From the NCBI GenBank assembly GCA_946403545.1, contig CAMJAG010000001.1, positions 872 through 64,871 on the forward strand: DNA of 64,000 nt, written 5' to 3'. The DNA is from an uncultured Bacillales bacterium (GTDB lineage: Bacteria; Bacillota_I; Bacilli_A; RFN20; CAG-826). How positions within the stretch are numbered: position 1 is the first letter of the stretch; each line of letters begins with the position of its first letter. The position numbers and the translations under genes were made by a program. Below are positions 5,726 through 53,966 of this stretch, one piece after another. The notes below the pieces were generated by a model that ran no database searches, had not been told where the DNA came from, and saw only the letters and a program-made list of their open reading frames with translations.

Positions 5726-6210
5726 AGATGTTTCTCCGCCTTAATGAGAATACGTTGATAAGTCTCAATAGTGAGTTTATCTCCCATCTCGTAGTCTAGT
5801 TCGTTTGTGAAAGCAAATATTACTTTGTCTTGGCAATTAATACCAATGAAATATCTTACATATACTGGATAGACATAAAGTCCATTCATGTAGCACATTT
5901 CATCACTTTTCTTTAGAAATTCCACTTCTTCTACAGGTTTAAGTCCACTACTATATCCTTTAAAATATCTATATCTTTGATTAATATCGTTATAAACGTT
6001 CATAAAGAAGAAGATAGCAAACCAAACAAATAAAACAGTGATAACAATTGCAATAATAAGTGTTGGGTAATATGCTTTCTTAGAGAAAATTACTAATAAT
6101 ACATCTGCAATAAGAACGATAGCGAAGACGCAAGAGAATGCTAAAGAGCATCTAAGGAGGTTAGATTTTGCTAATTTATATTCAGAATTTACGTCTACGC
6201 TATATTTCAT
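5722..6210 (-). CDS. hypothetical membrane protein
   Basis: 162 aa with two TM segments. Operonic. Confidence 0.45.
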   Translation of the reverse strand: MKYSVDVNSEYKLAKSNLLRCSLAFSCVFAIVLIADVLLVIFSKKAYYPTLIIAIVITVLFVWFAIFFFMNVYNDINQRYRYFKGYSSGLKPVEEVEFLKKSDEMCYMNGLYVYPVYVRYFIGINCQDKVIFAFTNELDYEMGDKLTIETYQRILIKAEKHL

Positions 6211-6211
6211 A

Positions 6212-8522: not shown

Positions 8523-8534
8523 AATTTGATACCT

Positions 8535-27805: not shown

Positions 27806-27851
27806 ATTAATTCACCTTCATAGTTATTTTAGCATGTGTTTATTTATAAAC

Positions 27852-27889
27852 AAAAAGAAAAAATACCCCCACCACTGAGGTAGGGGTAT
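27852..27889 (-). terminator. intrinsic terminator after the flotillin gene
   Basis: Arms ATACCCC (27863-27869) and GGGGTAT (27883-27889), followed by a U-run on the minus strand. Confidence 0.65.
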
Positions 27890-27902
27890 CTAAGATAATC
27901 AA

Positions 27903-29393: not shown

Positions 29394-29410
29394 AATACTG
29401 TCCTCCTTCA

Positions 29411-29776
29411 TTACTTATTAATGTGTATAGTTAGTATGTTCTCAGCATCATTCCAAGAAGTTGAGAACTTGACTGGCTTATCACTAAGCTCAATCTTTAA
29501 TGCTTCAGATATCTTTTTCATAAGTCCTGTTGAAGATATCCTTGCATATGTTTTTTTAACGGAGATTTGATAAATTGCGTATTCATCCAAGTCACCGCTT
29601 TGGACCTTTTCTTTCGTTAGTGGACGAATCACAACATTCTTATTAACATCTAATCCAACTTGTATTCTATATGCATACTCGAATGGAACAGACGCAATAG
29701 TATTCAATGTAATATTCGTATTATAGAAAGAAGCGGTACCAATTTTTTCTTCTGAACTAAACCATTGAATTTCCAT
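29411..29776 (-). CDS. hypothetical protein co-transcribed with flotillin
   Basis: 121 aa. Its stop overlaps the first in-frame ATG of the flotillin ORF (TAATG). No motif recognised. Confidence 0.5.
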   Translation of the reverse strand: MEIQWFSSEEKIGTASFYNTNITLNTIASVPFEYAYRIQVGLDVNKNVVIRPLTKEKVQSGDLDEYAIYQISVKKTYARISSTGLMKKISEALKIELSDKPVKFSTSWNDAENILTIHINK

Positions 29777-31714: not shown

Positions 31715-31790
31715 TGGTGGATCCGACGAGGATCGAACTCGCTACCTCATCGTTGCGAACGATGCGCTCTCCCAGATGAGCTACGGACCC
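31715..31790 (-). tRNA. tRNA-Ala, anticodon CGC, with encoded CCA
   Basis: Hand-folded 76-nt cloverleaf. Acceptor GGGTCCG/CGGATCC contains the G3:U70 Ala identity pair. Anticodon stem CATCG/CGATG with loop TTCGCAA. T-loop TTCGATC. 3' end ACCA. Confidence 0.9.
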
Positions 31791-38998: not shown

Positions 38999-39829
38999 AT
39001 GAATAATGAAACAAATAAAAATGAATTAGAGAATGAGAAAGTTTATATTTTCATTTCGCATTCTCATAAAGATATAGAAAAAGTAAGAAAAATTAGAAAT
39101 TATTTAGAGAGTCTTGATTGTGAACCAATTCTTTTCTTTTTAAAAAGCAAAGATGATGAAGATGAGATAATTCAACTTATCAAAGACGAGATTGATGCTA
39201 GAGTTTGGTTTATTTATTGTAGATCTATAAATGCATCTAAATCTAAATGGGTTAATGATGAAGTAACATATGTTGAGCAAACAGGTAAAAACAACATAGT
39301 TATAGATATCGATGGATGCCTAGATGAAAATGGAGAATTAAAAAATAGCGTTAAAAATAAACTTAATGTCATTATTAACGGATTTAGAAACTTACAACAA
39401 TTGTATATTTCTTATTCACACAAAGACTCTGTTGAAGTTCTTCGTATTGTCCAGTTTTTAAAAAGATATGGTGTTGATTTGTTTTATGATGACATGACAC
39501 ATTTTGGATCAGATTGGAAACATTCTATTCATAATCAAATTGTTAAATCGCCATATTTTCTGGTTTTTTTAAGCAAACAATCCATTAATTCACATTTCAT
39601 TTATGATGAAATAAAGCTAGCACAATACTTTAATAAAGAAATAATTCCCGTAATTCTTTATAACAATATTAACGATTATTATTCAGTCATTGAATCAGAT
39701 GTTTTCCAAAAGAATTTTGCATACTTTTTAGTCTGTGAATTCGATACTTCTAGTGATGTTCAATTCAAAGTGTCCTCATTTAGACTGCTAAACACATTAT
39801 TAGAGCATTTCTTTACGGATTTTGAATAA
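38999..39829 (+). CDS. tandem double-TIR domain protein
   Basis: Two TIR-like units: VYIFISHSHKD...SKWVNDEV and LYISYSHKDS...SHFIYDEI. Each keeps the conserved Glu position. Confidence 0.7.
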   Translation: MNNETNKNELENEKVYIFISHSHKDIEKVRKIRNYLESLDCEPILFFLKSKDDEDEIIQLIKDEIDARVWFIYCRSINASKSKWVNDEVTYVEQTGKNNIVIDIDGCLDENGELKNSVKNKLNVIINGFRNLQQLYISYSHKDSVEVLRIVQFLKRYGVDLFYDDMTHFGSDWKHSIHNQIVKSPYFLVFLSKQSINSHFIYDEIKLAQYFNKEIIPVILYNNINDYYSVIESDVFQKNFAYFLVCEFDTSSDVQFKVSSFRLLNTLLEHFFTDFE

Positions 39830-39832
39830 AAG

Positions 39833-39867
39833 AAAAGGTGGATTCTCATGAGTCCACCATTTTTATT
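39833..39867. repeat. 35-nt direct repeat, copy 2 (bidirectional terminator between convergent genes)
   Basis: AAAAGGTGGATTCTCATGAGTCCACCATTTTTATT. 9-bp stem with an A-run before it and a T-run after it. Confidence 0.85.
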
Positions 39868-41083
39868 ATGTTCGAGTAACTGAGAGGCTAACACTCCAAA
39901 CATAATAGAACATACTTGATGCATTCGCCGTAGGATGGTTTAGATTTAGCATAGCTTCTTCTATAAATAATGCATCTGATTTAGGTACTTTAATTGAGAA
40001 ACTATCCAAATCCGCACCATTGTTACTTTCTAAATGTATCGGGGTTTTATATTGGTTATTGAGTATAAACGACCCATTGATCCAATTACATAACAGCAAT
40101 AATTTTCTACCATAGTTATAGATATTAATCGTATATGTAATGTATTCAGTTGAAGATTCTGCGATCCATTCTTTTAAGTTAAATGGAAGTTTGTACTTCA
40201 ATGATGCATTTGAGGAATAAGTGCTATTTATGGTTGCACTGTTATCTTCAAATGTACTTGTTACACGTAGGCCTGCATAACTCTTATTAAGATTTATATA
40301 TTTATATTCTTCTAATAATGCTTCAGTTCCTAAATAAAGTTTCATTGAAATAGGACTTATTTTTGCAGGTGCAGTTGAGATACAACCTTTTGGTCTAGAA
40401 ACAGTGAATTTAATTCCTTTTAATATCTCTTCTTTATCTAATTTGTACATTCTATTGAAGACTGTGTAGTCATCATTTGAACGGAAGGTTCCACTATCAA
40501 TTAAAGATATTGCAGTATCTAACCTATAATCAACCCAATTAAATGTGTTAATTCCTACTACACCTTCTTCTTTTTCATAGTGGCTGAATTTTATAGTCAA
40601 ATAACCAACTGATTCAGTGTGTTGGAGATAGTATTGATAGTCTTCACTAAGCTTTAATTCATATGATTTTGACTTATTAGAACAAGAGATGTCTACACTA
40701 GGAAAATTGAAGTCTATAATCTGAGCTTCATTAGTGTCCAAATAGTTTGCGTAAATGTTTTCTGGAAGTTCCACATTGTCATAAATTGCTTTGCCAGAGC
40801 GATCCACTAATTTCTTTGAATTTAAGTTTGGCTTTTCGAAACAACCCATAAAGAGTTTGTCCTTCTTCTCTGTAGGTTGATATTCGAAAGTATTTATGTA
40901 TTGTATGGTATTTACTTCACCATCGTTTGCAATAACATTAACTTCCTTCCATGGAATTGGTTGTGGCTTATAATCCTCATCTAAAATCGGACAATTTGTT
41001 TCCCCTTTCATAGAAAAGGAACATGCACTGATAGATAATAACGAGACTGCTGTTATGAGTATTAAGCTAATTTTTCTTTTCAT
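39866..41083 (-). CDS. lipoprotein, function unknown
   Basis: The ORF-track start at 41101 is a TTG inside the SD. The ATG at 41083 (MKRKISLIL...SISAC lipobox) lies 9 nt after GGAGG. Confidence 0.55.
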   Translation of the reverse strand: MKRKISLILITAVSLLSISACSFSMKGETNCPILDEDYKPQPIPWKEVNVIANDGEVNTIQYINTFEYQPTEKKDKLFMGCFEKPNLNSKKLVDRSGKAIYDNVELPENIYANYLDTNEAQIIDFNFPSVDISCSNKSKSYELKLSEDYQYYLQHTESVGYLTIKFSHYEKEEGVVGINTFNWVDYRLDTAISLIDSGTFRSNDDYTVFNRMYKLDKEEILKGIKFTVSRPKGCISTAPAKISPISMKLYLGTEALLEEYKYINLNKSYAGLRVTSTFEDNSATINSTYSSNASLKYKLPFNLKEWIAESSTEYITYTINIYNYGRKLLLLCNWINGSFILNNQYKTPIHLESNNGADLDSFSIKVPKSDALFIEEAMLNLNHPTANASSMFYYVWSVSLSVTRT

Positions 41084-41124
41084 AATTGAGATCCTCCTCA
41101 ATTACAAAATATCACGAAAATAGG

Positions 41125-41370
41125 TTAAATACAATATCTATAGAATAAAAAGAAAGACACCCCGTCAAGGATGTCTATTGCGGATACCTCGAAGATATCA
41201 GCGAAAGTATTGACTGTATCAAGATTCACTGTTCCTTCGTTTTCAATTCTGCGTAAGTTTCTTACTGAATATCCAACGCGGTCTGCTAGCTCTTCTTGAG
41301 TCCAGTTTCTACTTTTTCTTAGGTTCTTGATGGATGTACCAATCAAGCGTGAATCAATTAATGTTCTCAT
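41125..41370 (-). CDS. XRE-family helix-turn-helix transcriptional regulator
   Basis: NLRKSRNWTQEELADRVGYSVRNLRRIENEG. I prefer the ATG at 41370, which lies 8 nt after GGGAGG. The ORF-track start is 41433. Confidence 0.75.
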   Translation of the reverse strand: MRTLIDSRLIGTSIKNLRKSRNWTQEELADRVGYSVRNLRRIENEGTVNLDTVNTFADIFEVSAIDILDGVSFFLFYRYCI

Positions 41371-41455: not shown

Positions 41456-41484
41456 ACTTTAAATTATCCTACGATTGTTGTCAA
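41456..41484 (-). promoter_or_regulatory. candidate sigma-70-type promoter of the XRE gene
   Basis: On the minus strand: TTGACA (41479-41484), a 17-nt spacer, then TAAAGT (41456-41461). Confidence 0.4.
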
Positions 41485-41486
41485 CA

Positions 41487-41738
41487 CTAATTGTCAGAAA
41501 TTGATTCTGCAAGTTCTAATATTTGTACAAATGTTAAAGATTGAAGGTGTAGATACGCTTGAACAACAGCCAACTTATATTCAGTTCTATCTGTTGACCT
41601 AATAGCAATATCTCTAAACCTTCTAAATTCTACTCTTGTTTCTTGCTCTGTATCACTAAGGCATGTCATTACCATTTTATTAGTTGCTTCTAAAGTAAGT
41701 TGCCTCAAATATTTTTTCTTAGCCTCAACATCAACCAT
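41487..41738 (-). CDS. hypothetical small protein downstream of the TIR-methyltransferase gene
   Basis: 83 aa, predicted helical. Starts 8 nt after the upstream stop. Confidence 0.45.
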   Translation of the reverse strand: MVDVEAKKKYLRQLTLEATNKMVMTCLSDTEQETRVEFRRFRDIAIRSTDRTEYKLAVVQAYLHLQSLTFVQILELAESISDN

Positions 41739-41746
41739 ATAAATAC

Positions 41747-43099
41747 CTATTTCTTAAATCCTACACAAACAAAGCGGTTAACTGCGTACCAAAAATCATT
41801 TCTAGAGAAACGATATTGGAGTTGCGTTAACAAATCTTCCATTTCATTGAACTCTGCTTTAGTTTGCTCATTTTCGTTTGCGATTAATTGAGCTTTAAAA
41901 TAATTCAATCTATAAGCAAAGCTTACTTTATAAAGACCTAATTTCTCTTCATAAGACATATGAGATGTTTCTGTAACAGTGCAATGCATTTTAACTTTGT
42001 TAAATCCTTCATGGACTAACCAAGAATAAAGTTTTCTACCATTGTTTCTATCAGACATTCCTTCAAGAGAATAAGATTTCTTTAAGACTTTTTCTATAAG
42101 CTCATCATCTCCATAAGAAATCTTACTGCCATCATCACTACCTCTAACAATAATCATTCCGCCTTTATTCATAAGAGCCTTTAAATTCTCTAATGCTTTT
42201 TCAGGATTTGTTAGATGATGGAGGACTAAGAAACAAGAAACAACATCAAAGCCTTTAATGCCCTTTTGCTTCATTATTCCCTGCATTTCCTCCATAAATG
42301 TTGGACTTTCAATATTTAATTGATAGAAAGAGAACTTACTATTTTTATTATTTTTATTTGCTTGTTCAATAGCACTTTCACTAATATCGATTCCCACTAC
42401 TTTAGTGTATTTTGCTTTTCTAAAAGCTTGTCTAGTTACATATCCTTGAGCGCAACCAACATCTAGAACTGTGTAATTGTTTTTGTCTAAATACATGTCT
42501 AAAATGCGTTGGTTTTCATCATCATATCTAGATCCTTGGCTTTTTAATCTTTCTGATTCATTAGTGAAATCAAATTCATAAATAGACCATCTTCCTTTGT
42601 AATCAATGCAATCTTTTGGTCTTGGTCTAGAAACTAAAAACCTATTAAACAATCTCTTTTGATAATCATTTACATCAAAAACATCACCAATTGGTTCACT
42701 ATGACAATCTCTAATTGCGTCAATTTCCTTTGGTAACTTTTTTGGATAATTAACTTTATCTAAGAATAAAACTAGAATATTTAATCCTTCAGTTTTTAAA
42801 GCGGTTTCTATTTCTTGTCTAACCCAGTCATCTTTTTTAAATATTCTCTTAGAAAATGTATCTGGAGTTACAAGAAGAATAAAGTCTTTGGAATTATGGA
42901 TTGCATTAGTTAACTGAGGTGGAAACATACCACCTTGAATTGATACCTTATCAAAGAAACTTAGATAACCATTATCCATCAAATTTCTATATAAAAGATA
43001 CGTTGGATATAATCCATCACTTCTTCTATATGAAATGAAAACATCATATATAAAATCTTTTCTCTTAATTTGAGTGTTTTTATTAATTTCTTCAGGCAT
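41747..43099 (-). CDS. TIR domain fused to a class I SAM-dependent methyltransferase
   Basis: N-terminal TIR (DVFISYRRSDG...DDWVRQEIE). Central methyltransferase motif I VLDVGCAQG, then FDVVSCFLVLHHL and MIIVRGSDDG. SD AGAGGA. Confidence 0.7.
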   Translation of the reverse strand: MPEEINKNTQIKRKDFIYDVFISYRRSDGLYPTYLLYRNLMDNGYLSFFDKVSIQGGMFPPQLTNAIHNSKDFILLVTPDTFSKRIFKKDDWVRQEIETALKTEGLNILVLFLDKVNYPKKLPKEIDAIRDCHSEPIGDVFDVNDYQKRLFNRFLVSRPRPKDCIDYKGRWSIYEFDFTNESERLKSQGSRYDDENQRILDMYLDKNNYTVLDVGCAQGYVTRQAFRKAKYTKVVGIDISESAIEQANKNNKNSKFSFYQLNIESPTFMEEMQGIMKQKGIKGFDVVSCFLVLHHLTNPEKALENLKALMNKGGMIIVRGSDDGSKISYGDDELIEKVLKKSYSLEGMSDRNNGRKLYSWLVHEGFNKVKMHCTVTETSHMSYEEKLGLYKVSFAYRLNYFKAQLIANENEQTKAEFNEMEDLLTQLQYRFSRNDFWYAVNRFVCVGFKK

Positions 43100-43198: not shown

Positions 43199-45580
43199 AT
43201 GTATCCTGAATTACTTGCTATTTTCATTATTACTGGAGTTGTTGAACTCGTTTTAATAGGTGTATTTTTTTATAACCTAATCAGATATAGATATCTTGGT
43301 AATAAATATTTTTACGTAACTGTAAGTGTATTAGTTCTTTTGATGTATTCAACATTCGTCAATAGATCATCAGATCTTTCTATTTCTATGTTTGGAAACA
43401 TAGTGTTTGACACTATTGCGGCAGCAGTAGGTAAAGTTGATACTGAAAAGATTTCTTGGCTGTTTTTACCGGGCGAATGGAATAAATGGCTAGTAATTTT
43501 CTACTTTATCGCCTCATATACAACATTCGCATTCTTATCCATCACAGTTATTCTTAACTTTGCAAAACTCTTCTTAAATGCATTTATTTTCTATAAAAGA
43601 CGAATTATAAATGGAGCAAATGTGTACTATTTGTTCACAGATTCTAGAAATGAAACAGTAATTCCTTTAGCCACTAAACTATTAGATGAAACAAAAGGTC
43701 GTAAAAACTCAGTTAAAGTTTTCGTTTCTAGAGCATCTTTAAAAACTCAAGAAGGTAATGAATTTAGAGATATGTTAGTGGGCTTAGGCATTCCTGTTCA
43801 AGCTGAAAAATTCTCATACAGGATGGCTAGAAAGATCTTTAATTCTAGATACTTCAAACTACATCTTTTTGATAAGCAACAATCGTTTATTTACTTACTT
43901 TTCTCAAATGACGAAACCACTACAAAAGTGGCAACTGATTTCAAAACAGCGATTCAAAAGAATCGTAAGTTTAAAAAAATTAACGACTTTGTAACTCTTT
44001 TAAAGGAAACAAAAGACAAAGATAAATTAGAGAAATTAAAAGAGAACTTTAATGAGAAAGAATATGATTTATTACAAAAAATCCAAATCTTTGTCACTTA
44101 TCAAGAAACAGATTTAGATATTCTCCATAACTTCTCTGGAGAGACATTGCATATCATGAATACTCTTTCTAAGTACGACATGATTGCTTCTAGATTTGTA
44201 TTTGATAATCCAATCTCTCAATTAGTGGACTTAAACAACATCAAACTTAAAGAAGACAATAAACATTTAAATGTTACACTCCTTGGTTTTGGTGTTATTG
44301 ATAGAGCAATATTTGAAAGAATGACATTCTCTTATCAACTTTATGGAGATAATATTAACAAAGTTAATTACCATGTTTTAGATAGAGATGCTGATTCTTT
44401 AATTAAACCTTATGTAAACGAATATACAGATAGAAATAACAGTGTTTATCTATACTCTATCGACTCCGCTTTCGATGGAGAAGATTTAAGACACTACGAA
44501 ACAATTGATAGATATATCTCATCATTGCAAAACGATCCAAACCGTTTCCAAGATGATGGTTTTGAAATCTTTGTTATTTCAGTCATAAACTCAAATAACG
44601 ATTTAAATATCGCGCTTAACTTAAGAAGAGCTATCTTAAAATACTTCAATGATAGATGTGAACAAGTTGTTATTTACGTCAGAGTTGCAGAAAGACTCAT
44701 TGGAGAACAATTCAGAGGTTCAAATCTTTCATACACATACGAAACTCTCTCTCATATTCACGAAGTAAAAGACTTCAATAAGAAATCTGATGTAGAGAAA
44801 GAAGCATACTTCAACTCATTCAAGGACGAGGAAGAAAGAAAAGCAGCAGAGAAAAGATTAATTAAAGATTTAAAAGCACCTATCATTCTCTTTGGTAATG
44901 ATGCAATTATGTCCACATATCTTGCTAGAGAACATAAATACTTCATGGGATTCGCTGAAAACGCTTGGAAATCCTACCAATTAGAACAAGCTTATAACAA
45001 TTATTCTGAAACTCAACTTGATAGATTATGGTTAAGACAAAATAAACAAGAAGTTAAAAATAACACTGATTATGTTCTTTCACTTAGAACAAAGCTAAAC
45101 TTATTTGGCTACAAACTAAATCTAAATAAACAAGAAAACCAATACTTAATGGTTCCTGGTGATGATGTTTCAATTCTTACTTCAGGTGAAAATGAAGAAA
45201 CATTCCTTGAAAGAACAAAACTTAAAGATGAAACTGGTGATGTTGCAAAAGTTCTTAAGATTGCTGATATGGAACATAACCGCTGGTTACAATCCAATAA
45301 CCAAAGATTTAGATATTTATCTAAAGATTACACAAAGGTCGAGGATCAAGAACTATTTGGAGTGAATAAATACACCAATGAAAAAGAAATCACAAGGAAA
45401 TATAACGACAATACACAACACATTTGTATGGTCACTAATGAGGGATTAAGAGACTTCTACAATTATGTTGGAAAGAAAAATCCTGAATATAAAGATGTCG
45501 CTTTAAAACTTGTGTACACAAACGATATTGTTCAGTTAAGAACGATAATCAAAAATGGAACAGAACAAAAGAATAAATAA
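43199..45580 (+). CDS. large membrane protein with Rossmann-like (GxGxxD) segment and weak C-terminal RyR-like signature
   Basis: Four or five N-terminal TM segments. VTLLGFGVIDRAI. C-terminal IADMEHNRWLQSN. SD GAGG. Confidence 0.5.
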   Translation: MYPELLAIFIITGVVELVLIGVFFYNLIRYRYLGNKYFYVTVSVLVLLMYSTFVNRSSDLSISMFGNIVFDTIAAAVGKVDTEKISWLFLPGEWNKWLVIFYFIASYTTFAFLSITVILNFAKLFLNAFIFYKRRIINGANVYYLFTDSRNETVIPLATKLLDETKGRKNSVKVFVSRASLKTQEGNEFRDMLVGLGIPVQAEKFSYRMARKIFNSRYFKLHLFDKQQSFIYLLFSNDETTTKVATDFKTAIQKNRKFKKINDFVTLLKETKDKDKLEKLKENFNEKEYDLLQKIQIFVTYQETDLDILHNFSGETLHIMNTLSKYDMIASRFVFDNPISQLVDLNNIKLKEDNKHLNVTLLGFGVIDRAIFERMTFSYQLYGDNINKVNYHVLDRDADSLIKPYVNEYTDRNNSVYLYSIDSAFDGEDLRHYETIDRYISSLQNDPNRFQDDGFEIFVISVINSNNDLNIALNLRRAILKYFNDRCEQVVIYVRVAERLIGEQFRGSNLSYTYETLSHIHEVKDFNKKSDVEKEAYFNSFKDEEERKAAEKRLIKDLKAPIILFGNDAIMSTYLAREHKYFMGFAENAWKSYQLEQAYNNYSETQLDRLWLRQNKQEVKNNTDYVLSLRTKLNLFGYKLNLNKQENQYLMVPGDDVSILTSGENEETFLERTKLKDETGDVAKVLKIADMEHNRWLQSNNQRFRYLSKDYTKVEDQELFGVNKYTNEKEITRKYNDNTQHICMVTNEGLRDFYNYVGKKNPEYKDVALKLVYTNDIVQLRTIIKNGTEQKNK

Positions 45581-45588
45581 CCTATGAA

Positions 45589-45614
45589 AAGCCATAGAAC
45601 TGGCTTTTCTTTTT
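45589..45614 (+). terminator. intrinsic terminator after the 793-aa gene
   Basis: AAGCCA (45589-45594) pairs with TGGCTT (45601-45606), followed by TTCTTTTT. Confidence 0.6.
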
Positions 45615-45632
45615 ACTTTACACTACAAATAC

Positions 45633-45645
45633 ACGCATAATGCGT
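45633..45645. promoter_or_regulatory. perfect palindrome ACGCAT-A-ATGCGT abutting a TATAAT box (candidate operator)
   Basis: Palindrome at 45633-45645. TATAAT at 45648-45653. The operon starts at 45695. Confidence 0.3.
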
Positions 45646-45694
45646 TATATAATGGATTTGTAGAAATACAAATATAGCAATGGAGAATTAGATT

Positions 45695-46618
45695 ATGATT
45701 ACAGAAATTCATAAGAATTATTCTGCTTTTCGAGAAATGTTGTTAGCCACAACTGCTTTAAGCAACCGTTCTAGTAAGAAATATGATGACGATTGCAAAG
45801 CAATCATTGATTTCATCGGAGAAGCATATGGTCTAGAAAAAGACCTCGTAGAATATTGTAAAAAGGTCATTTTAGATGAACTAGTTACAATATCTACTGA
45901 CCAAGATATCCGCGCTTTCGTAAATTCACATACCGCTGACAGTGAATTAGAAGAATTAGACTCTTTATTAAGCGCTAAATGTGATGTTATTGGAGTTATT
46001 AGAAACTTTGGAGAAGTTAGAAGTCCTCAATTAAGTGAGACTTGGTTTGACTATAGTCATAGCAATCCATATTATCCAGAAATTAGATATCAACAATTAT
46101 CTATCGCTGCTTCCACAGGTAATGTAGTAGCAAATAAGATCGTTGGTATTCTTTCTGTTTTAGGTATTGGATGCGAAGCTACTAGAGAAAAGGTTCTTTC
46201 TGGAGTTTATAGACTTAGACAATGCGCTATTTGGGGAGACATTTCTTCTCTAATTATGATTAGACAAGTTTATAGAATCTTAGAAATGAAAGAACAAGTA
46301 AAACTCTATGATGAATTAGTGTCATTAGTACCTTTCATGAAAGAAGGAAGAACAGTAATTCCTCAAAGAATTGCAGAGAAAATCTCTAGAGAAGCAATAG
46401 AAACATTCGCAATTATCTGTTCTATTAAACAAGACATTATCTTAAATCAACATAAGTTCTACATAGATTATTCATTCGTTGAAGTTATGTTACTTAAAGA
46501 AGTTGATTACTATGATAAACTCCACTTCATTAATAAATATGACGCTCAAGAGTGGAAAGAAGTTACTAACTCATCATTTAATCCAAATAAGAAGATTGGA
46601 TTTAAGATTGGAGAATAG
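45695..46618 (+). CDS. helical repeat protein (Sel1/TPR-like?)
   Basis: 307 aa. The segment AASTGNVVANKIVGILSVLGIGCEATREKVLSGVYRLRQCAIWGD resembles Sel1-like repeats. SD GGAG. Confidence 0.35.
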   Translation: MITEIHKNYSAFREMLLATTALSNRSSKKYDDDCKAIIDFIGEAYGLEKDLVEYCKKVILDELVTISTDQDIRAFVNSHTADSELEELDSLLSAKCDVIGVIRNFGEVRSPQLSETWFDYSHSNPYYPEIRYQQLSIAASTGNVVANKIVGILSVLGIGCEATREKVLSGVYRLRQCAIWGDISSLIMIRQVYRILEMKEQVKLYDELVSLVPFMKEGRTVIPQRIAEKISREAIETFAIICSIKQDIILNQHKFYIDYSFVEVMLLKEVDYYDKLHFINKYDAQEWKEVTNSSFNPNKKIGFKIGE

Positions 46619-46621
46619 ATT

Positions 46622-48586
46622 ATGAAAAGAAGACCATATTCTGAACAAGTATCTCAAAAATACATTGATCAAAATCTTGAAAACACTCAAATAATGTCCT
46701 TCCTTGAATATAAAGGTAAAGGCTACGCTAAATACTTATTTGATGATTTAGCAAAAACTGATATCAAAGGATTCCCATTCTCTAGTGATTTTGTATCTTC
46801 TAAAGGGAAATCATATTCCTTTATTGATTTTGAAAATCTAAGTGATAAAGAAAAAGCGGATTGTAAACTTAGATTCTTCTATTTACCTAATTATCATGAG
46901 TTATATATCGGTACTACTGGTTCTGGTAAAACTACAGGATGTATTGAACCACAAATCAGAGCGATATCCACTCAAAAGAATAAAGCTAACTTATTTATTA
47001 CTGACCCTAAAGGTGAGTTATTTGAACATAATGGTAAATACTTAAAAGACCAAGGTTATAACGTATTTGTTCTTAACTTTAGAAACTTAGGTAGAACTCA
47101 TACATGGAATCCACTTAAAGAAATGTATGAAAAACAAATGGAATCTCTCACTATTGGAAAGAATAGTAAGAAATGTAATTGTCCAGTAGATAAGTCACTA
47201 GCGTTAATGTCTGAAAAGAGTAAATATCAAGGCACATATATTGCTTATAAACACATGGCATTTGCAACACAAGAAGACTTTGATAAATACGTGAATATTG
47301 AAACTTATTTAAATAAATCCAAAGTTTCTTCATTAGTTAACCAATTATGTGACTGTATCTTTAGTGAAGATAAATCCACTACAGATAGAACTTGGAGTGA
47401 TGGTGCTAGAGGATTATTCCATGGTATTTTATTGTCCATGTTAGAAGAAGCTGTTTTACCAGGAAGTAAGTTTAGCGAACAACATATGACATTAAAGACA
47501 GTTAACGATATCTTCAATTTAATTAGAGAAGGTAGCGAAACTCGCGATTCATATGGAGATCACTACACTAACGAAGAAATGCATGAGAAGATGGTAGACT
47601 TCTTGCATGGTAAATCATCTATTTGTATGAGCAAGTTAAATAATATTATTAAGACTGCTCAAACAACGAGAAAAGGGTTTTTATCAACATTCTTATCCAC
47701 TACTGAAAAATGGATGCAAGGTCACATCTATCAATTGACAAGTCATACATCTATTTCTCTAGAAGATAATGAACATCCTTGGGCGGTATTTGTATCCACT
47801 AGAGACTATGATAAATCAGATAATGTTATCGCTGGTTTATTCATTGACTGGGTATATAGACAATCTCTACAAGCTGTTGAAGAGAAACGTAAACTCGGTT
47901 TAGAACCTAGACCAATTCACTTCTTATTAGATGAATTCGCTAACATTCCAAGAATCCCTGACTTTGATAATAAGATTGCTACTGCTAGAAGTAGAAATAT
48001 GTGGTTCCACTTATTCGTTCAATCTTATGATCAATTAGATTTAATCTATGGAGAAGAAACAGCCTCTATTATCGTAGATAACTGTAACCAACAAACATTC
48101 TTAGGTTCTCAATCTCAAGAAACTAAAGAAAGATTCTCTAGAGAATGTGGTAAAAAGACTGTTACATCCTTAGAAGGTGTTATTCATGGTGAAGTTAACG
48201 ATGTTGTAGAAATCCCAGTTGTGCCTATCACAAGTCTAGATCAAATCAAACCTGGTGAAATGTACACTAAACGTATTTATTCTCCAATATTAAGATGTAG
48301 CTTTATCAGAAGCTATCAATGCGCTCAACAAGGTATCTTTAAAAACTTCTGGAATAATAAAGCGGAAGAAGAACTTATTCCACTTAACTATGTTATTCCT
48401 GATGATTTAGAACATTCTTATTTACCAGTATTAAGCGCTATTGAAGTAAGAAGATTATGTCCACCTAGACCAAGAAATCCTCGTAGTAGAGTTCAATACG
48501 AAGATGAAGACATGGAAGCAGAAGATCCTGAAGACTTTGAAGACTTCTTACATGAAGTTCAACTTAAGATGAAAGGAAAGAAGTAG
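46622..48586 (+). CDS. soluble VirD4/TraG/TraD-family (type IV coupling protein-like) P-loop ATPase
   Basis: Walker A GTTGSGKTTG. FITDPKGE. Walker B-like HFLLDEFANIP. Also FHLFVQSYDQL. No N-terminal TM segments. Acidic C-terminal tail. Confidence 0.7.
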   Translation: MKRRPYSEQVSQKYIDQNLENTQIMSFLEYKGKGYAKYLFDDLAKTDIKGFPFSSDFVSSKGKSYSFIDFENLSDKEKADCKLRFFYLPNYHELYIGTTGSGKTTGCIEPQIRAISTQKNKANLFITDPKGELFEHNGKYLKDQGYNVFVLNFRNLGRTHTWNPLKEMYEKQMESLTIGKNSKKCNCPVDKSLALMSEKSKYQGTYIAYKHMAFATQEDFDKYVNIETYLNKSKVSSLVNQLCDCIFSEDKSTTDRTWSDGARGLFHGILLSMLEEAVLPGSKFSEQHMTLKTVNDIFNLIREGSETRDSYGDHYTNEEMHEKMVDFLHGKSSICMSKLNNIIKTAQTTRKGFLSTFLSTTEKWMQGHIYQLTSHTSISLEDNEHPWAVFVSTRDYDKSDNVIAGLFIDWVYRQSLQAVEEKRKLGLEPRPIHFLLDEFANIPRIPDFDNKIATARSRNMWFHLFVQSYDQLDLIYGEETASIIVDNCNQQTFLGSQSQETKERFSRECGKKTVTSLEGVIHGEVNDVVEIPVVPITSLDQIKPGEMYTKRIYSPILRCSFIRSYQCAQQGIFKNFWNNKAEEELIPLNYVIPDDLEHSYLPVLSAIEVRRLCPPRPRNPRSRVQYEDEDMEAEDPEDFEDFLHEVQLKMKGKK

Positions 48587-48587
48587 T

Positions 48588-49133
48588 ATGGCTAACGATA
48601 ATTTTGAAGAATTATATAAACAAGGAATTATAGTCATCACTACTGGTATAGAAGATATGGATGTTACTAGTAACATCATCTTATCTCTTCTTAATTGGAA
48701 CAGAATTGATCCAAAGAAAGAATTACAACTCTATATCTCTTCAGTATCTGGAGACTACCTAAATGTCCTTTCTATTTATGACGCTATCCAATCAATTAGT
48801 AATCCAATTTCAGGATATTGTATTGGTTTAGTTGGTAGTTGCGCTGCACTACTTTTAGCGGCGTGTAACAAAGGTAAACGCTACATTTTAGAGCATAGTC
48901 AAATTGCTTTAAGAGAGATTTCTGGCATTATTCCTGGTGGAAGTAAACAACAAACAGAAATCGAAATTCTCGCAAACGAATTAGCGTCTCAAAGAGAAAC
49001 ATTTGAATCTCTTCTTTCAAAACATACAGGTCAATCCGTTGAAGAAATACACCACCTTTGCTATGAAAACACTTATTTAACTCCTGAAGAAGCTATTAAA
49101 AAAGGCTTCGTAGATAAGATTGTGAGGAAATAA
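48588..49133 (+). CDS. ClpP-like (S14) subunit, predicted catalytically inactive
   Basis: Aligns by eye with ClpP. Ser is kept (GLVGSCAA), but His is replaced (IALREI versus IHQP) and Asp is replaced (YENTYL versus ERDRFL). Confidence 0.6.
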   Translation: MANDNFEELYKQGIIVITTGIEDMDVTSNIILSLLNWNRIDPKKELQLYISSVSGDYLNVLSIYDAIQSISNPISGYCIGLVGSCAALLLAACNKGKRYILEHSQIALREISGIIPGGSKQQTEIEILANELASQRETFESLLSKHTGQSVEEIHHLCYENTYLTPEEAIKKGFVDKIVRK

Positions 49134-49135
49134 TT

Positions 49136-49648
49136 ATGGATAACAGAATTATTACTTTAAATGGTGAAATCAACGAAGGAAGCGCGATGAAAGTTATTCT
49201 TTCATTACTTCAAATGGATGCTGAAAATAGAAAACAACCAATATATCTATATATCAACTCTCCTGGTGGAAATATTGTTCATGGATTAGCAATATATGAT
49301 GTTATGAATAACATATCCGCTCCGGTATATACAGTATGTAATGGCATGGCAGCATCGATGGGTAGTTTCTTACTCTCTTGTGGTGCTAAAGGACATAGAT
49401 ATTGTTTAAAACACTCTCGTATTCTTATCCATCAACCACTTGTCTATAACAACTATGGAAGAATGATTGAAGAAAGCGAAGCTCAACAAATCGCCGCTAA
49501 TTTAAGAAAAGATAGAGATAAATTAGAACAAATCATGGCAGACAATTCTGGTAAAGACATTAAAGTCTTCCATAAGGATTGTGAAAGAGACCATTGGATG
49601 AGCGCTCAAGAAGCTCTAGACTATGGTCTAATAGATAAGATTATCTAA
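49136..49648 (+). CDS. ClpP-like (S14) serine protease subunit, catalytic triad intact, N-terminal axial region missing
   Basis: YINSPGG, GMAASMG (Ser), ILIHQP (His) and CERDHWMSAQEA (Asp). It starts at the position equivalent to RVIFLTG of canonical ClpP. Confidence 0.7.
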   Translation: MDNRIITLNGEINEGSAMKVILSLLQMDAENRKQPIYLYINSPGGNIVHGLAIYDVMNNISAPVYTVCNGMAASMGSFLLSCGAKGHRYCLKHSRILIHQPLVYNNYGRMIEESEAQQIAANLRKDRDKLEQIMADNSGKDIKVFHKDCERDHWMSAQEALDYGLIDKII

Positions 49649-50437: not shown

Positions 50438-53284
50438 TTATCCCTTCAAATCTCTAATAAATTTCTCAACATGTTTAATCCATGTTAATACTGATTCATT
50501 TTGTAAGTATTCGTATTTTCTTGTTACTTTTTGTGCTTCGCAAATCAAATTATATAAAGCTTGTGCTTCAGTTAATTCGATTGGAATATTTAGTTTTTCC
50601 GCAATTTCAATTGCTTCAGAACAAGGAGCTTCCGCTTTTGCAAGTAAGGAAGTATCTCCATTATAGTTTACTAAATAGTAAAGAGAAGTTAAGAAATAGA
50701 TTTGACCTTGGTCATATAAATCTTTATTCTCTTTAGCACATTTCATTGCTTCTTCTTTTAATTCCATGATCCTTGCTTCATTGCCACGATTAACAATTTC
50801 ATAGAACATAGATGTATATAAGAATCTTGTGTAATATCTATCATGTTGGTTATATAAGACATAGATTGCTTCCGCTTTATTAAGTTTATCTTTAGCTTTA
50901 GCTAAATCCATATGCCATATACATGCATCAGCGTATACACGATAGTCTTCCGCTAAGAAGAGGTGATCTCCAATTTGAGTGCCATCTTCCATTTCTTCTT
51001 TAACTCTTTTATCAAGAAGCGCGACAGCATTATCTGCTGCTTTATAGCAGTTTTCTAAATCAAGCCTTCTACAATAAACTTTTGATAAAGTTAAGTTAAT
51101 CAAAGATTCTTCGTATAAATCGCCTGCTTCTTTAGCGTCTTTGATCGCACCATCACTCATTCCTATGAGTTCGTCGAATAGCACCATCTTGCGATAAACA
51201 AGCATTGCCATTCTTTCAAATTCACTACGAATTTCTATGTCTAATTCGCCTAAATCATGTTCTTTGATGAATTCTTTAATGTCATTAAATGCTTCAGTAA
51301 ATGATAAGGAAATATAGTGGAATTGAATAACTCCCATATCATAGTTCACATCATCACTTGGATCTCTATTCTTTAAGAACTTACCAAATCCTGCTTCTTT
51401 AAGTTTGATAAATAAGCCAGCGTTATAGATTGCTTGTCTATATTTGATAAAGATTTTTGTAAAACATTCAGACTGATAGATTTCAAACGCTTCATAATCA
51501 TCATCCTTATAGATGTAATTGATGTTATCAATGTATTCAAATAATCCTTCATAAAGAGTGTAAAGTTTTGATTTAATACACACTCTTAAAAAGTCAAAAT
51601 TCTTTAATAGTTTACAAAGTTTTTCTGTCTTTTTAAGTGCTTTTAAGGCTTTTTGATAGTCTAAGATGACATAAGGATTGTTCTTCCATTCACCTAATTC
51701 AATTTGCTTTTCAATATATTCAAGCAAGATCTTATAACCATCTCTTCTAGAGACACAATATTTTGCAGGACATTCGTTAGATTCACTTAACCAGTCTAAA
51801 ATTGATTTATGTCTACTCTTAAGAGTGCCATCTTCAATAATTACAAAGTAATTAGATACTATATCGATATTCTTTCTAATTTCAGATTCTGATAGACCTG
51901 TTGCATCCGCTAAAAACTCCACTGTTGGAGGAACGCTTGTAGCGAGTAATAAAGATATAATCTTTCTAATATCTTCATAATCATCTGGTGCTTTAGGGAA
52001 AATTCTATCAAACCAGATTAAGTAGTATGAATAAATTCCGTCAGGGAATTCTCTAACGTTATCTAAAGAGTATTCACCACTCTTAATTAGACTAACAATA
52101 CTCTTAGCATATAAGAATGATCCATGTGTTTTTCCAAGCAAAATCCTCAGTGTTTCTGCATCGAATTTATAATTTGAGAGTGCTTGGTCATAATACTTTT
52201 TAATATCCGCAACGTTTTCTTCATTGTTTTCTAACATGCTGAAAACGTGACAACTTGAGAAGTAACTAACAACATTCTTTTGAGGTCTAGTTGAACATAA
52301 AATCTTTAACCAAGAAGGTAAAGTGTTTTGATAAGTCACTATCATCTCAGCAATTTCATTTTTATTATCCAAAACTGCTTCATCTAATGCATCGATAACA
52401 ATTATTTGAGGGTTCTTAAAAGTAACTTTGTTACCTACTTCAATAAAGAACAACTCAAATAATCTTTTAGCGTCTAAATTATCTATATTTGCTTCTCTAG
52501 TTAAAATCTTTTTAATTTCGAGATTATAATCTTCGTTACGACCAGCGATTTGTGCTGCTAAGTTTTTAATAATACTTCTAGCGTCAGTCTTAGTTCTATT
52601 ACCAAAGCTACAGAAATGGATACCTGCAACATTGTTATGGAAATTAATAGTTAACATAGCGCACATTGCAGTCTTTCCAATACCTGGAGCAGCTTGTAAT
52701 AAATAGATTGGTAAACTATCTGGTTTATTAATCCATTTTTCTACATCCGCGAAGAAAGAATCTCTACCAACAAAGTTGAGTGTATGATGAGTAATTTCAA
52801 AAGCGTCAATAGCTTGGACTTCTTTAGAAATATCAAAACCAGTATCGAAGTAGCCTACTTCTTCTTCGTTTCTAACGATCTTTAGTAATCTTTGATAGCA
52901 ACTTTCGTATACATCTTCAATGATTGAATTATCCGCTGCGACAGCGTTTTTAATCATGATTCTTTGTAAACGAACAATTGAAAGAGGAACATAAGAGTCA
53001 TCTAACATGATAGGAACAATTGTTTTCTTATATTCCACTGCTCTAGCGAGTTCATTTAAACAATATCCGTCTAGAGAAACAGACTTTTTAGATACAAAGA
53101 AAACAAAATGACTACATCTTTGAATCGCGTTATCAATTTTAGTTTCCCAATCACCTTGATATAGATAGTCCTTATCAAGGAAGACTTCATAAACTTCTTC
53201 TTTGCGTAAATCAGTAACAACTTTATTGACTACGTTTTCTAAAGTTTGATGTCCATAGGATATGAAAATAACTTGTTTATCCAT
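50438..53284 (-). CDS. TIR - STAND P-loop NTPase - TPR-like repeat protein (Avs/bNACHT-like architecture)
   Basis: TIR (VIFISYGHQ...GYCLNELA). Walker A APGIGKTA. Walker B IIVIDALDEA. The C-terminal roughly 400 aa is a helical repeat region. Confidence 0.75.
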   Translation of the reverse strand: MDKQVIFISYGHQTLENVVNKVVTDLRKEEVYEVFLDKDYLYQGDWETKIDNAIQRCSHFVFFVSKKSVSLDGYCLNELARAVEYKKTIVPIMLDDSYVPLSIVRLQRIMIKNAVAADNSIIEDVYESCYQRLLKIVRNEEEVGYFDTGFDISKEVQAIDAFEITHHTLNFVGRDSFFADVEKWINKPDSLPIYLLQAAPGIGKTAMCAMLTINFHNNVAGIHFCSFGNRTKTDARSIIKNLAAQIAGRNEDYNLEIKKILTREANIDNLDAKRLFELFFIEVGNKVTFKNPQIIVIDALDEAVLDNKNEIAEMIVTYQNTLPSWLKILCSTRPQKNVVSYFSSCHVFSMLENNEENVADIKKYYDQALSNYKFDAETLRILLGKTHGSFLYAKSIVSLIKSGEYSLDNVREFPDGIYSYYLIWFDRIFPKAPDDYEDIRKIISLLLATSVPPTVEFLADATGLSESEIRKNIDIVSNYFVIIEDGTLKSRHKSILDWLSESNECPAKYCVSRRDGYKILLEYIEKQIELGEWKNNPYVILDYQKALKALKKTEKLCKLLKNFDFLRVCIKSKLYTLYEGLFEYIDNINYIYKDDDYEAFEIYQSECFTKIFIKYRQAIYNAGLFIKLKEAGFGKFLKNRDPSDDVNYDMGVIQFHYISLSFTEAFNDIKEFIKEHDLGELDIEIRSEFERMAMLVYRKMVLFDELIGMSDGAIKDAKEAGDLYEESLINLTLSKVYCRRLDLENCYKAADNAVALLDKRVKEEMEDGTQIGDHLFLAEDYRVYADACIWHMDLAKAKDKLNKAEAIYVLYNQHDRYYTRFLYTSMFYEIVNRGNEARIMELKEEAMKCAKENKDLYDQGQIYFLTSLYYLVNYNGDTSLLAKAEAPCSEAIEIAEKLNIPIELTEAQALYNLICEAQKVTRKYEYLQNESVLTWIKHVEKFIRDLKG

Positions 53285-53966
53285 GTACTTTTTCCTCTAA
53301 AGCAATGTTATAACCCGCTTTCTTGCCTTCATTTAATGTTTCTTCATTTGCTAAATGCATAAGAGTAATTTTCTTTCTCTCTTCCATATTGAAGGCGTTA
53401 TTTAATACTGAAATATGAGTATGTATCATCGCATTAAGAGAAGTTGTAACTTCATGATACATTTCATCTATTTTTCCTGATTTAAGTTCTCTAACTGCTC
53501 TATCAAGTAGTTCAGATGTATCTCCTGAATAGTAGAAATTAATTTCTTTAGAATATACAAAATATGCATAACTACCAGGAATATGTGGAACTTCAACAGG
53601 TTCCACTTTTAAATCTTTGATTAAAGAGTAGTCATTATATATTTCAAAATCAAAATCTAAACCAGTTAATTGGAGTAGTTTTTTAAGATTATCTTTTAAA
53701 GGATAGAAGACTTTTACCGTCTTTTTTGAGAAGAAATGAATCCAATATAAGAATGGTTCAAGGCTTCCAATATGATCACTATGAAGATGGGTAATTAAAA
53801 CAACAATTTCATCAACATCATCTAAAAGATGAAGTGCTAAAATCTTGTCACAAATTTTCTCGCCCATATCAAAAATATACAATTTGCCATTTTGTTTAAA
53901 ATAAGCACAATTGTTATTTGTGAAATAGTTAAAAGCGGCTCCTACACCTAAAAATTTTAAATACAT
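53277..53966 (-). CDS. metallo-beta-lactamase-fold hydrolase
   Basis: HxHxDH motif as ITHLHSDHIG. Overlaps the TIR-STAND start by 8 nt. Confidence 0.75.
   Translation of the reverse strand: MYLKFLGVGAAFNYFTNNNCAYFKQNGKLYIFDMGEKICDKILALHLLDDVDEIVVLITHLHSDHIGSLEPFLYWIHFFSKKTVKVFYPLKDNLKKLLQLTGLDFDFEIYNDYSLIKDLKVEPVEVPHIPGSYAYFVYSKEINFYYSGDTSELLDRAVRELKSGKIDEMYHEVTTSLNAMIHTHISVLNNAFNMEERKKITLMHLANEETLNEGKKAGYNIALEEKVHG

Follow-up and report, generated by a model that had tools for sequence, protein, structure and literature searches.

What does a TIR domain do on the same polypeptide as a methyltransferase? The question is raised by a gene encoding a 450-amino-acid (aa) protein at positions 41747..43099, minus strand, of a stretch of DNA from an uncultured Bacillales bacterium (assembly GCA_946403545.1, contig CAMJAG010000001.1, positions 872 to 64,871); this whole stretch of 64,000 nucleotides (nt) is called the window below. 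The source organism has about 31% GC and uses genetic code 11, and its relatives come from gut metagenomes. A sequence-only reading of this DNA had recognized an N-terminal TIR domain and a class I methyltransferase core in the protein, and had offered three roles for the latter: modifying a product or substrate of the TIR domain, sensing, or modifying nucleic acids. Here we describe a family of such proteins, in which one methyltransferase-like module carries different N-terminal domains of the effector type. Judging from sequences and predicted structures, the gene may encode a self-contained, single-polypeptide immune protein of the abortive-infection type; we hold this reading tentatively, as one that falls a little short of probable.

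The two halves of the protein

The coding sequence is supported by the list of open reading frames (ORFs), by Pfam matches, by homologues and by an AlphaFold2 (AF2) model, and in the upstream sequence the Shine-Dalgarno motif AGAGGA lies 6 nt 5' of its ATG. All motifs quoted in the sequence-only reading were found at their places, and Pfam recognizes TIR_2 and five Methyltransf families in the protein. The TIR domain (residues ~18-155; 42635..43048, minus strand), delimited by phmmer matches to PDB sequences and by the elements of the AF2 model, contains the motifs DVFISYRRSDG (residues 19-29) and DDWVRQEIE (residues 90-98). TIR_2 matches residues 20-126 of the 450-aa protein (E 1.2e-9, 39.1 bits against a cut-off of 28), and two other Pfam TIR models also exceed their cut-offs, TIR (PF01582) with 22.7 against 21.3 and ThsB_TIR with 23.3 against 21.2. 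The closest PDB sequence is the TIR domain of SARM1 (phmmer, E 1.7e-11, residues 19-130). In this alignment (DWVrqEI against DWVHKEI) Trp92 and Glu96 face W638 and E642 of SARM1 in its established numbering. E642 is the catalytic glutamate of SARM1; the putative catalytic residue aligned with it, Glu96 (codon 42812..42814, minus strand), is kept in 189 of 190 TIR-type family members. The model shows the alternating strands (residues 18-23, 47-49, 70-77 and 107-113) and helices (26-42, 61-68 and 92-102) of a TIR fold. On these alignments and the model, the TIR of the fusion protein is an intact SARM1-like domain that retains the putative NAD+-cleaving glutamate.

The methyltransferase-like module (residues ~169-450; 41750..42595, minus strand) was delimited by a hidden Markov model of the module (residues 169-449), by Foldseek and by the conservation table. 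In the AF2 model, which used 64 homologues as input (predicted local distance difference test, pLDDT, 90.1; predicted template modeling score, pTM, 0.81), the TIR domain at ~18-155 is followed by a short low-confidence linker at 174-178 and by a methyltransferase domain with a helical and stranded cap at 181-450. The module is built of a helix on its N-terminal side (Y174, E181, R184, Q188), a Rossmann core that contains the motifs for binding S-adenosylmethionine (SAM), and a C-terminal cap with the motifs RGSDDGS (319-325), SDRxNGRK (349-356), SF(A/S)YR (393-397) and FWY (436-438). SAM-binding motif I, VLDVGCAQG (residues 211-219; 42443..42469, minus strand), is conserved across the family: in 249 complete members D213 and G215 are invariant and G219 is nearly so. 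Two further motifs, FDVVSCFLVLHHL and MIIVRGSDDG, occupy residues 284-296 and 315-324.

The Pfam families Methyltransf_31, _12, _23, _11 and _25 match residues ~197-345 with E values from 2e-22 to 2e-14. Foldseek against the PDB gave a Methanosarcina mazei methyltransferase, 3mgg, as the best match (E 1.7e-16, template modeling score normalized to the target 0.76), followed by LahSB, BC_2162, TleD, JHAMT, RebM, phosphoethanolamine N-methyltransferases and TmtA/GtmA. About 1000 PDB structures matched at E<=0.001; among the 50 best that were listed, every one is a methyltransferase of the small-molecule or peptide type. A profile of the standalone form of the module also retrieved 3mgg (E 9.7e-18), and Tam was among the matches in PDB sequence searches. 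The earlier proposal that the C-terminal half would match and fold as a class I methyltransferase was borne out by Pfam, the AF2 model and Foldseek: it has this fold with intact SAM-binding motifs and is of the small-molecule type, methyl transfer itself being only predicted. The suggestion of a nucleic-acid-modifying enzyme fared poorly. No (D/N/S)PP(Y/F/W) motif (DPPY/NPPY), PCQ motif or target-recognition domain was found in the 450-aa sequence, and none of the top 50 structural matches departs from the small-molecule or peptide type.

The near-invariant positions of the module fall into those expected to bind SAM (L212, D213, G215, C216, G219, D238, D/N262 and D285) and those specific to the family (Y174, E181, R184, Q188, R319, S321, D322, D323, G324, D350, R351, G354, R355, K356, F394, R397, F436, W437 and Y438). 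D238, the acidic residue that ends strand 2, is near-invariant across all of the N-terminal classes described below, and in the conservation table the signature residues of the module are equally conserved in every class. In an all-pairs comparison the module is more conserved than the TIR domain (identity 0.43 against 0.35). This pattern suggests that all classes share a ligand or an activity, and speaks less for a fast-evolving recognition of proteins; the invariant charged residues favor a conserved small ligand over a phage protein that changes rapidly. An S-x-Y motif that includes Y174 is nearly invariant in all classes, including the transmembrane-fused and standalone forms, yet Y174 belongs to residues 174-178, the only part of the model that has low confidence (pLDDT <50). 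Y174 could be a lid or pseudo-substrate residue.

One module with several N-terminal domains

Many relatives are 450-500 aa long yet align with the window protein only over residues ~170-450. We read the sequences of such relatives and took a census of the N-termini of 261 members. At least two TIR groups, with 180 and 12 members, can be separated by BLAST; the larger contains the SARM1-like 'DVFISYRR' type and an 'ISFKNTD' type, and the smaller is a 'YVFLSYSH' type confirmed by TIR_2 and ThsB_TIR. In a provisional HEPN-like class of 18 sequences the N-terminus is a helical domain of ~170 aa in which R122 and H127 (an Rx4H motif) and E42 are invariant. HEPN_RiboL-PSP matches seven of these 18 below its curated cut-off (best E 3.7e-4), and four other models give matches that are likewise sub-threshold (HEPN_Apea in three, HEPN_Swt1 in three, HEPN in one and HEPN_Cthe2314 in one). 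The members assigned by hydropathy to a transmembrane class have N-termini of 70-105 aa with one or two strongly hydrophobic helices, and standalone members of ~260-300 aa have no N-terminal domain. An N-terminus with the sequence 'YRIFIASPSDVPEER...', recognized as DUF4062-like by eye and not by a profile, is encoded at 5329-6720 of two viral contigs from IMG/VR (L084/L085).

Among the best 150 representatives at 50% identity, ~86 have a TIR, ~19 a HEPN-like and 11 a transmembrane N-terminus, ~26 have none or a short one, and 7 are partial; the share of TIR forms is probably inflated, because the search profile kept the TIR columns. TIR, HEPN and transmembrane domains are the usual effector repertoire of CBASS, Pycsar, Thoeris and Avs proteins. 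One constant module, as judged by these sequences, carries exchangeable N-termini of the effector type, with the HEPN, transmembrane and DUF4062 labels being provisional. Since the module also occurs on N-termini other than TIR, a role tied to TIR chemistry is insufficient, and of the three roles proposed earlier that of a sensor fits best with the same module standing behind a HEPN-like, a transmembrane, a DUF4062-like or no N-terminus.

Extent and distribution of the family

With a word-indexed search, 253 matches were obtained among 5.8 billion proteins, nearly all of them 430-470 aa long with TIR_2 and a methyltransferase, at 98% to ~28% identity. An exhaustive HMMER profile search of 1.84 billion representatives at 50% identity recovered 404 proteins at E<=1e-30 (4078 at E<=1e-10). 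The same two-domain layout is present in more than 180 homologues, with identities from 98% down to ~26%, so the fusion is not an assembly artifact. With 404 clusters the fusion is not a lineage-specific singleton. No partner gene is conserved in the 65 loci that we confirmed by scanning one genome per GTDB species.

Most of these 65 loci are from gut Clostridia (Christensenellaceae, Oscillospiraceae, Lachnospiraceae) and Coriobacteriia (Collinsella), and the others from Bacillales (Evansella, Anaerobacillus, Paenibacillus), Micrococcales, Bacteroidales, an Akkermansia bin and one ANME-1 archaeon. The closest genome in this collection encodes a protein only 41% identical to that of the window, and a look-up of the exact sequence of the window protein found no record of it. 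The patchy distribution across phyla looks like the outcome of horizontal transfer. In 2.9 million viral contigs we found two true family members, which are near-identical to each other; the family is therefore host-encoded, and these sole viral-contig members are the DUF4062-like form.

The sequence-only reading knew of no characterized TIR system with this fusion, and we found none either: the family is not described in PADLOC-DB v2.0.0 (2023), NCBIfam (June 2026) or the searchable literature. No NCBIfam model came near its cut-off for the fusion protein, and full-text literature searches gave no description of a TIR- or HEPN-methyltransferase fusion, a survey of the HEPN superfamily and a survey of NAD+/ADP-ribose conflict systems included. 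The family is real, widespread and apparently undescribed in the databases and literature searched.

Gene neighborhoods and the small downstream gene

An all-against-all clustering of four genes on each side of the 65 loci revealed no neighbor family that is conserved beyond close synteny. In many loci the downstream genes are convergent or separated by long gaps, which suggests that the family genes are monocistronic units. Where neighbors are tightly coupled, they are heterogeneous, including genes for a bacterial PH-domain protein, an NB-ARC-TPR STAND protein, a RimK-like ATP-grasp protein, and pentapeptide and radical-SAM proteins. In one locus (L069) a standalone module is translationally coupled to an NB-ARC-TPR STAND gene, the N-terminus of which appears DUF4062-like by eye. 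Another standalone module (P0102) is flanked by genes for a zinc-ribbon protein and an overlapping Metallophos protein, with an ADP-ribosylglycohydrolase gene 1.7 kb away. In two unrelated contexts the family gene is overlapped at its 3' end by one for a phosphoesterase, Y_phosphatase3 following a 60% TIR-methyltransferase homologue (L001, 7286-8074) and Metallophos following a standalone module (L079, 6876-7466). ADP-ribosylglycohydrolase genes are found in L074 (13821-14663, 4.5 kb from the fusion gene) and in L079 (8567-9499).

The close clade, at 52-98% identity, consists of six sub-lineages, and even within these the arrangement varies. In the window and the related contig L070 the fusion gene is accompanied by an 83-aa ORF and a gene for an XRE regulator; in L071-L073 an 885-aa membrane gene precedes it and an 81-aa gene follows; in L001-L003 it is followed by an overlapping Y_phosphatase3 gene and a helix-turn-helix (HTH) gene; in L074 it is followed by an XRE gene; and in L081/L082, as in L083, it stands alone.

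The 83-aa ORF (41487..41738, minus strand), recognized from its homologues and without a domain match, begins 8 nt past the stop of the fusion gene, as had been noted before. A 94% identical copy is present in L070, and the 81-aa gene of L071-L073, which occupies the same position with a 4-nt overlap with the fusion gene, encodes a protein 37% identical to it (E ~1e-19 by blastp, 6e-16 by tblastn). The 83-aa protein has no Pfam, PADLOC or NCBIfam match, and a whole-database search yielded nothing beyond the 94% copy; we rejected a widespread family of such proteins on the strength of this search. The small ORF is present in two of the six close sub-lineages (window/L070 and L071-L073), always in the same chromosomal island, and absent from L001-L003, L074, L081/L082, L083 and the ~60 wider loci. 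The 83-aa ORF, as its homologues indicate, is a real gene but no conserved partner of the fusion gene, and it is lineage-specific, since its 37% relative in L071-L073 is the only detectable one besides the copy. The idea that it forms a two-gene unit with the fusion gene does not hold up against this distribution.

A further small ORF, of 82 aa, lies at 8444-8692 (minus strand) of L078, adjoining an 816-aa membrane gene in an island without a TIR-methyltransferase. It has a C-terminal 'SLSYEEILE' in common with the 81- and 83-aa ORFs, and matches the 81-aa protein with E 0.01 and the 83-aa protein not at all. If it were homologous, then the small ORF would belong to the island and not to the TIR-methyltransferase.

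Beyond the 83-aa gene lies an XRE-family HTH regulator of 81 aa (41125..41370, minus strand; HTH_3 E 4.8e-11), as the sequence-only reading had it. Translation probably begins at the ATG at 41370, which follows the Shine-Dalgarno motif GGGAGG; this gives the 81 aa called in the 98%-identical contig L070. The promoter that had been assigned to it is seen as a sigma-70-like pattern match, TTGACA-17-TAAAGT (41456..41484, minus strand; 10/12 in a consensus scan), directly 3' of the 83-aa stop and 5' of the XRE gene, and a consensus scan also gave a pattern match to a terminator-like hairpin with a T-run where the XRE gene ends (41155..41176, minus strand). A very similar XRE gene is located directly 3' of the 60%-identical homologue in L074. 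No convincing repeat that could serve as a shared operator was found between the XRE promoter and the region upstream of the fusion gene.

The island in the window

Three TIR proteins are encoded within 15 kb in the window, which gives strong local support for a defense island. One is a 276-aa ThsB-like protein with tandem double TIR domains (38999-39829, plus strand; TIR_2 E 2e-26, several ThsB models down to 1e-14), the gene of which adjoins that for a 411-aa lipoprotein (39866-41101, minus strand). The block of XRE, lipoprotein and double-TIR genes is missing from the related island L072. No ThsA model matched any of the 49 window ORFs (PADLOC 2023, which is without the effectors of Thoeris types III-XI). 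The other is a 948-aa protein with a TIR domain, a STAND NTPase (NPHP3_N) and a winged HTH domain (50438-53284, minus strand), ~7 kb from the fusion gene and also present in the related island L075. A gene for a 229-aa protein of the metallo-beta-lactamase fold overlaps its 5' end (region 50438-53966, minus strand), and its product gives a sub-threshold match to the anti-Pycsar Apyc1 model (46 bits against a cut-off of 50).

On the side of the fusion gene away from the XRE, lipoprotein and double-TIR block is a conserved set of genes (43199-49648, plus strand) that is also found in L071, L075, L076 and L078. It encodes a membrane protein of 730-885 aa, a 307-aa protein, a VirD4/TraG-like ATPase and two ClpP-like proteins; the relatives add a ~90-aa RyR-domain protein and a ~150-aa protein, a pair missing in the window. 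The membrane protein has N-terminal transmembrane helices, two Rossmann-like domains and a C-terminal 'EHNRW' helix. For the 793-aa version in the window an AF2 model (pLDDT 79) has its best PDB match at E ~2e-3, a faint and not significant likeness to Slo/RCK-type channels. In L071 the membrane gene is co-directional with the fusion gene, with two bases between them. We considered the 793-aa protein as a functional partner and rejected it, because in L076 and L078 the conserved set occurs without the TIR-methyltransferase and with other cargo at that position. The cargo consists of radical-SAM genes and a gene for a 1509-aa protein with only a faint ATPase_2 match in one related island, and of Mbeg1-like and ATP-grasp genes in another. 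No other genes of a type IV secretion system were seen around the conserved set beside the VirD4/TraG-like ATPase, and the set may be an undescribed conflict system rather than a remnant of conjugation.

Elsewhere in the window, a gene for a PLD-domain protein (PADLOC DrmC models, E down to 6e-12) adjoins one for an SPFH/flotillin-like protein (26213-29411, minus strand), and the PADLOC scan of the window ORFs gave an additional mad3 match (E 2e-29) and a second mad8 match. The sole tRNA gene, for tRNA-Ala(CGC) (31715-31790, minus strand), is a possible boundary of a variable region with GGDEF, MgtC, S41 peptidase and TIR genes.

Comparison with known systems

The layout of an effector joined to a sensor is known from other systems, whereas the type of the sensor or enzyme module appears from its sequence to be new. 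SARM1 and the TIR effector fusions of CBASS (TIR-SAVED/Cap12), Pycsar (PycTIR) and TIR-STING resemble the family in the DVFISYRR strand-A motif and the W...E segment. These fusions likewise place an N-terminal TIR before a C-terminal domain that binds a ligand or regulates, and relatives of that domain bear transmembrane or nuclease-type effectors in place of the TIR. However, the family uses a methyltransferase fold and not a SAVED, cNMP-binding, STING or ARM domain, and no cyclase or other signal-generating gene is conserved near it in the 65 loci. The PADLOC match to SAVED-TIR (E 4.4e-7) is confined to the TIR part. With Thoeris ThsB (types I-XI) the window protein has in common that it is a TIR protein among other TIR genes and that its TIR gives weak ThsB/ThcB4 profile matches, but here the TIR is fused to a large enzyme-like module and the window has no ThsA or other known Thoeris effector. 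We rejected membership in Thoeris, as there is no ThsA among the 49 window ORFs and no conserved effector neighbor in the 65 loci. A systematic survey of bacterial TIR signaling systems from December 2025 does not mention methyltransferases (bioRxiv 10.64898/2025.12.03.692087).

The module itself is most similar to 3mgg, BC_2162 and small-molecule or peptide methyltransferases such as JHAMT, LahSB, BamL, RebM, TleD and PMT, with which it has fold and SAM motifs in common (Foldseek E 1e-16 to 1e-11). 3mgg also has a degenerate motif after strand 5, IEGDHGS against RGSDDGS in the family, and a GRxxY helix. These enzymes, however, are without N-terminal effector domains and without the invariant residues Y174, E181, R184, Q188, R319, D322, D323, R351, R355, R397 and FWY, which are specific to the family. 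3mgg and BC_2162, the nearest solved relatives, have no assigned function. Avs and other bacterial NLR-like STAND proteins likewise combine TIR, DUF4062-like, HEPN-like and transmembrane N-termini with a constant C-terminal part; in the family this part is a methyltransferase fold of ~280 aa and not an NTPase with a repeat sensor, and it is highly conserved rather than diversifying.

The Mad2 methyltransferases of MADS and the methyltransferases of restriction-modification (R-M) systems have the Rossmann SAM-binding core in common with the family (PADLOC mad2, E 1.9e-16), but the family lacks the N6-adenine catalytic motif, the target-recognition domain and the MAD6-8 operon. MADS is defined as an operon with mandatory MAD6-8 and an N6 DNA methyltransferase (bioRxiv 10.1101/2023.03.30.534895). 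The mad2 match is limited to the Rossmann core (residues 191-320), and MAD6 and MAD7 were not found in the PADLOC scan of the window ORFs; a gene at 46622-48586, 3.5 kb away on the opposite strand and similar to those for type IV coupling proteins, matches mad8 (E 2.2e-10). Membership in MADS or R-M was rejected, the mad2 match being generic and the operon absent.

Proposed role and alternatives

If the fusion protein acts in immunity, the C-terminal module would be its constant sensing or regulatory part, or an enzyme that processes the trigger, and the SARM1-like TIR its effector. The sensing role is favored because the same module is found on TIR, HEPN-like, DUF4062-like, transmembrane or no N-termini. 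The module would bind SAM and, in a putative pocket that is peculiar to the family and contains many of its conserved Arg, Asp and Lys residues, a further ligand or substrate, probably a small, anionic molecule. Once triggered, it would switch its state or oligomerize and bring the TIR domains together, and the assembled TIRs would cleave NAD+, so that the infected cell is arrested or killed. A fall of SAM or rise of S-adenosylhomocysteine (e.g., caused by phage SAM lyases) and a phage-derived metabolite that is bound or methylated are candidate triggers only, and the 83-aa ORF and the XRE regulator would be local accessories and not part of the core. Counted in favor of immunity are the two intact halves, the swapping of effectors, the equal conservation of the module, the lack of a conserved partner, the location in a variable segment beside two other TIR genes, and the patchy, host-encoded distribution. 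Several observations weigh against it. The strong conservation of residues that do not bind SAM could equally mean a catalytic methyltransferase with a defined substrate. The effector labels are soft, with the transmembrane class resting on hydropathy and the HEPN label amounting to 15 sub-threshold matches to five HEPN-named families plus Rx4H, and a profile search of the PDB with the HEPN-like alignment gave only a spurious match to a designed protein; the census is also skewed toward TIR forms. Outside the window the signal for defense islands is weak: the 150 non-redundant neighbor proteins from ~57 loci are mostly housekeeping, including tRNA synthetases, transporters, sugar epimerases and NAD synthase, and PADLOC matched a handful (dGTPase twice, UzuA, AbiEi, QatD, LmuA and an RT-protease).

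An alternative explanation, which we regard as unlikely, is that the methyltransferase acts on the substrate or product of the TIR, methylating nicotinamide or ADP-ribose against the resynthesis of NAD+ (including its reconstitution by phages), or making a methylated signal derived from ADP-ribose. The TIR is by far the commonest N-terminal partner, with at least two TIR groups and a DUF4062-like domain on the module, and the structural neighbors are small-molecule methyltransferases, many with carboxylate or phosphate substrates (JHAMT, LahSB and phosphoethanolamine methyltransferase, with Tam added by sequence). The conserved Arg and Lys would be compatible with an anionic, nucleotide-like substrate, and the ADP-ribosylglycohydrolase genes in L074 and L079 and the overlapping phosphoesterase genes in L001 and L079 are weak hints in the same direction. 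However, an identical module with the same invariant residues is found on HEPN-like and transmembrane N-termini or alone, none of which yields NAD+-derived products, and no gene for a cognate receptor or effector is conserved nearby; this weakens the earlier suggestion that the enzyme modifies a TIR product. We consider it distinctly unlikely that the protein is a metabolite guard, in which the SAM-bound module silences a TIR, HEPN or transmembrane effector and fires when a phage collapses the SAM pool (through a SAM lyase or inhibition of MetK) or when the module binds or methylates a small molecule made by the phage; in a variant the TIR forms would also methylate nicotinamide or ADP-ribose and thereby block the reconstitution of NAD+ by phages. 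The protein could also be a small-molecule methyltransferase or regulator of normal physiology, with an N-terminus for localization, oligomerization or metabolic control (e.g., by linking the NAD+ and SAM pools). The mostly housekeeping neighbors in the wider family, the roughly one-sixth of representatives without an effector domain and the enzyme-like degree of conservation speak for this, but the N-termini include toxic effector modules, namely a SARM1-like TIR with its Glu in 189 of 190 members and a HEPN-like domain with Rx4H, and the patchy, apparently horizontally transferred gene has other TIR immune genes for neighbors in the window and lies in a segment that differs from one related island to the next. 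A non-immune role is in our judgment improbable.

Still less weight is due to an obligate system of two or three genes in this lineage, with the 83-aa protein as antitoxin, immunity protein or trigger adaptor, the XRE regulator as controller, or both. The 8-nt gap in the window, the 4-nt overlap in L071-L073, the 37% identity of the small proteins and the presence of an XRE or other HTH gene 3' of the fusion gene in three of the six close sub-lineages (window/L070, L074, L001) could be read in this way; yet the small ORF is absent from L001-L003, L074, L081/L082, L083 and ~60 wider loci, has only its 94% copy in the database and no recognizable domain, and the two promoter regions have no operator-like repeat in common. 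Finally, in an R-M-like or MADS-like system, the methyltransferase might label the DNA or RNA of the host as self, with the TIR acting on invaders that are unmarked. The best PADLOC match of the C-terminal half is mad2 (E 1.9e-16), the XRE regulator weakly matches mad1, and the gene at 46622-48586 matches mad8. This explanation is largely refuted and retains hardly any probability: the mad2 match covers the Rossmann core only, there is no DPPY, NPPY or PCQ motif and no target-recognition domain, the structural neighbors are small-molecule methyltransferases, and the MAD6-8 organization is absent.

Implications

If the immune reading is true, the fusion gene would represent a large family of one-gene immune systems, with hundreds of clusters at 50% identity, that is frequent among Clostridia and Collinsella of human and animal guts. 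Its sensing part would be an enzyme fold not previously tied to TIR or HEPN effectors, and thus a new input domain for bacterial TIR immunity. Phages attack the SAM pool with SAM lyases to escape R-M and BREX, and the family would offer a testable handle on whether cells guard this pool; should the module indeed act as a SAM guard, single-gene immunity would gain a new class, one that surveys one-carbon or SAM metabolism. Should the family turn out to be non-immune, its conserved pairing of a SARM1-like NADase with a SAM-dependent enzyme would still connect NAD+ and SAM metabolism in a way so far unexplored.

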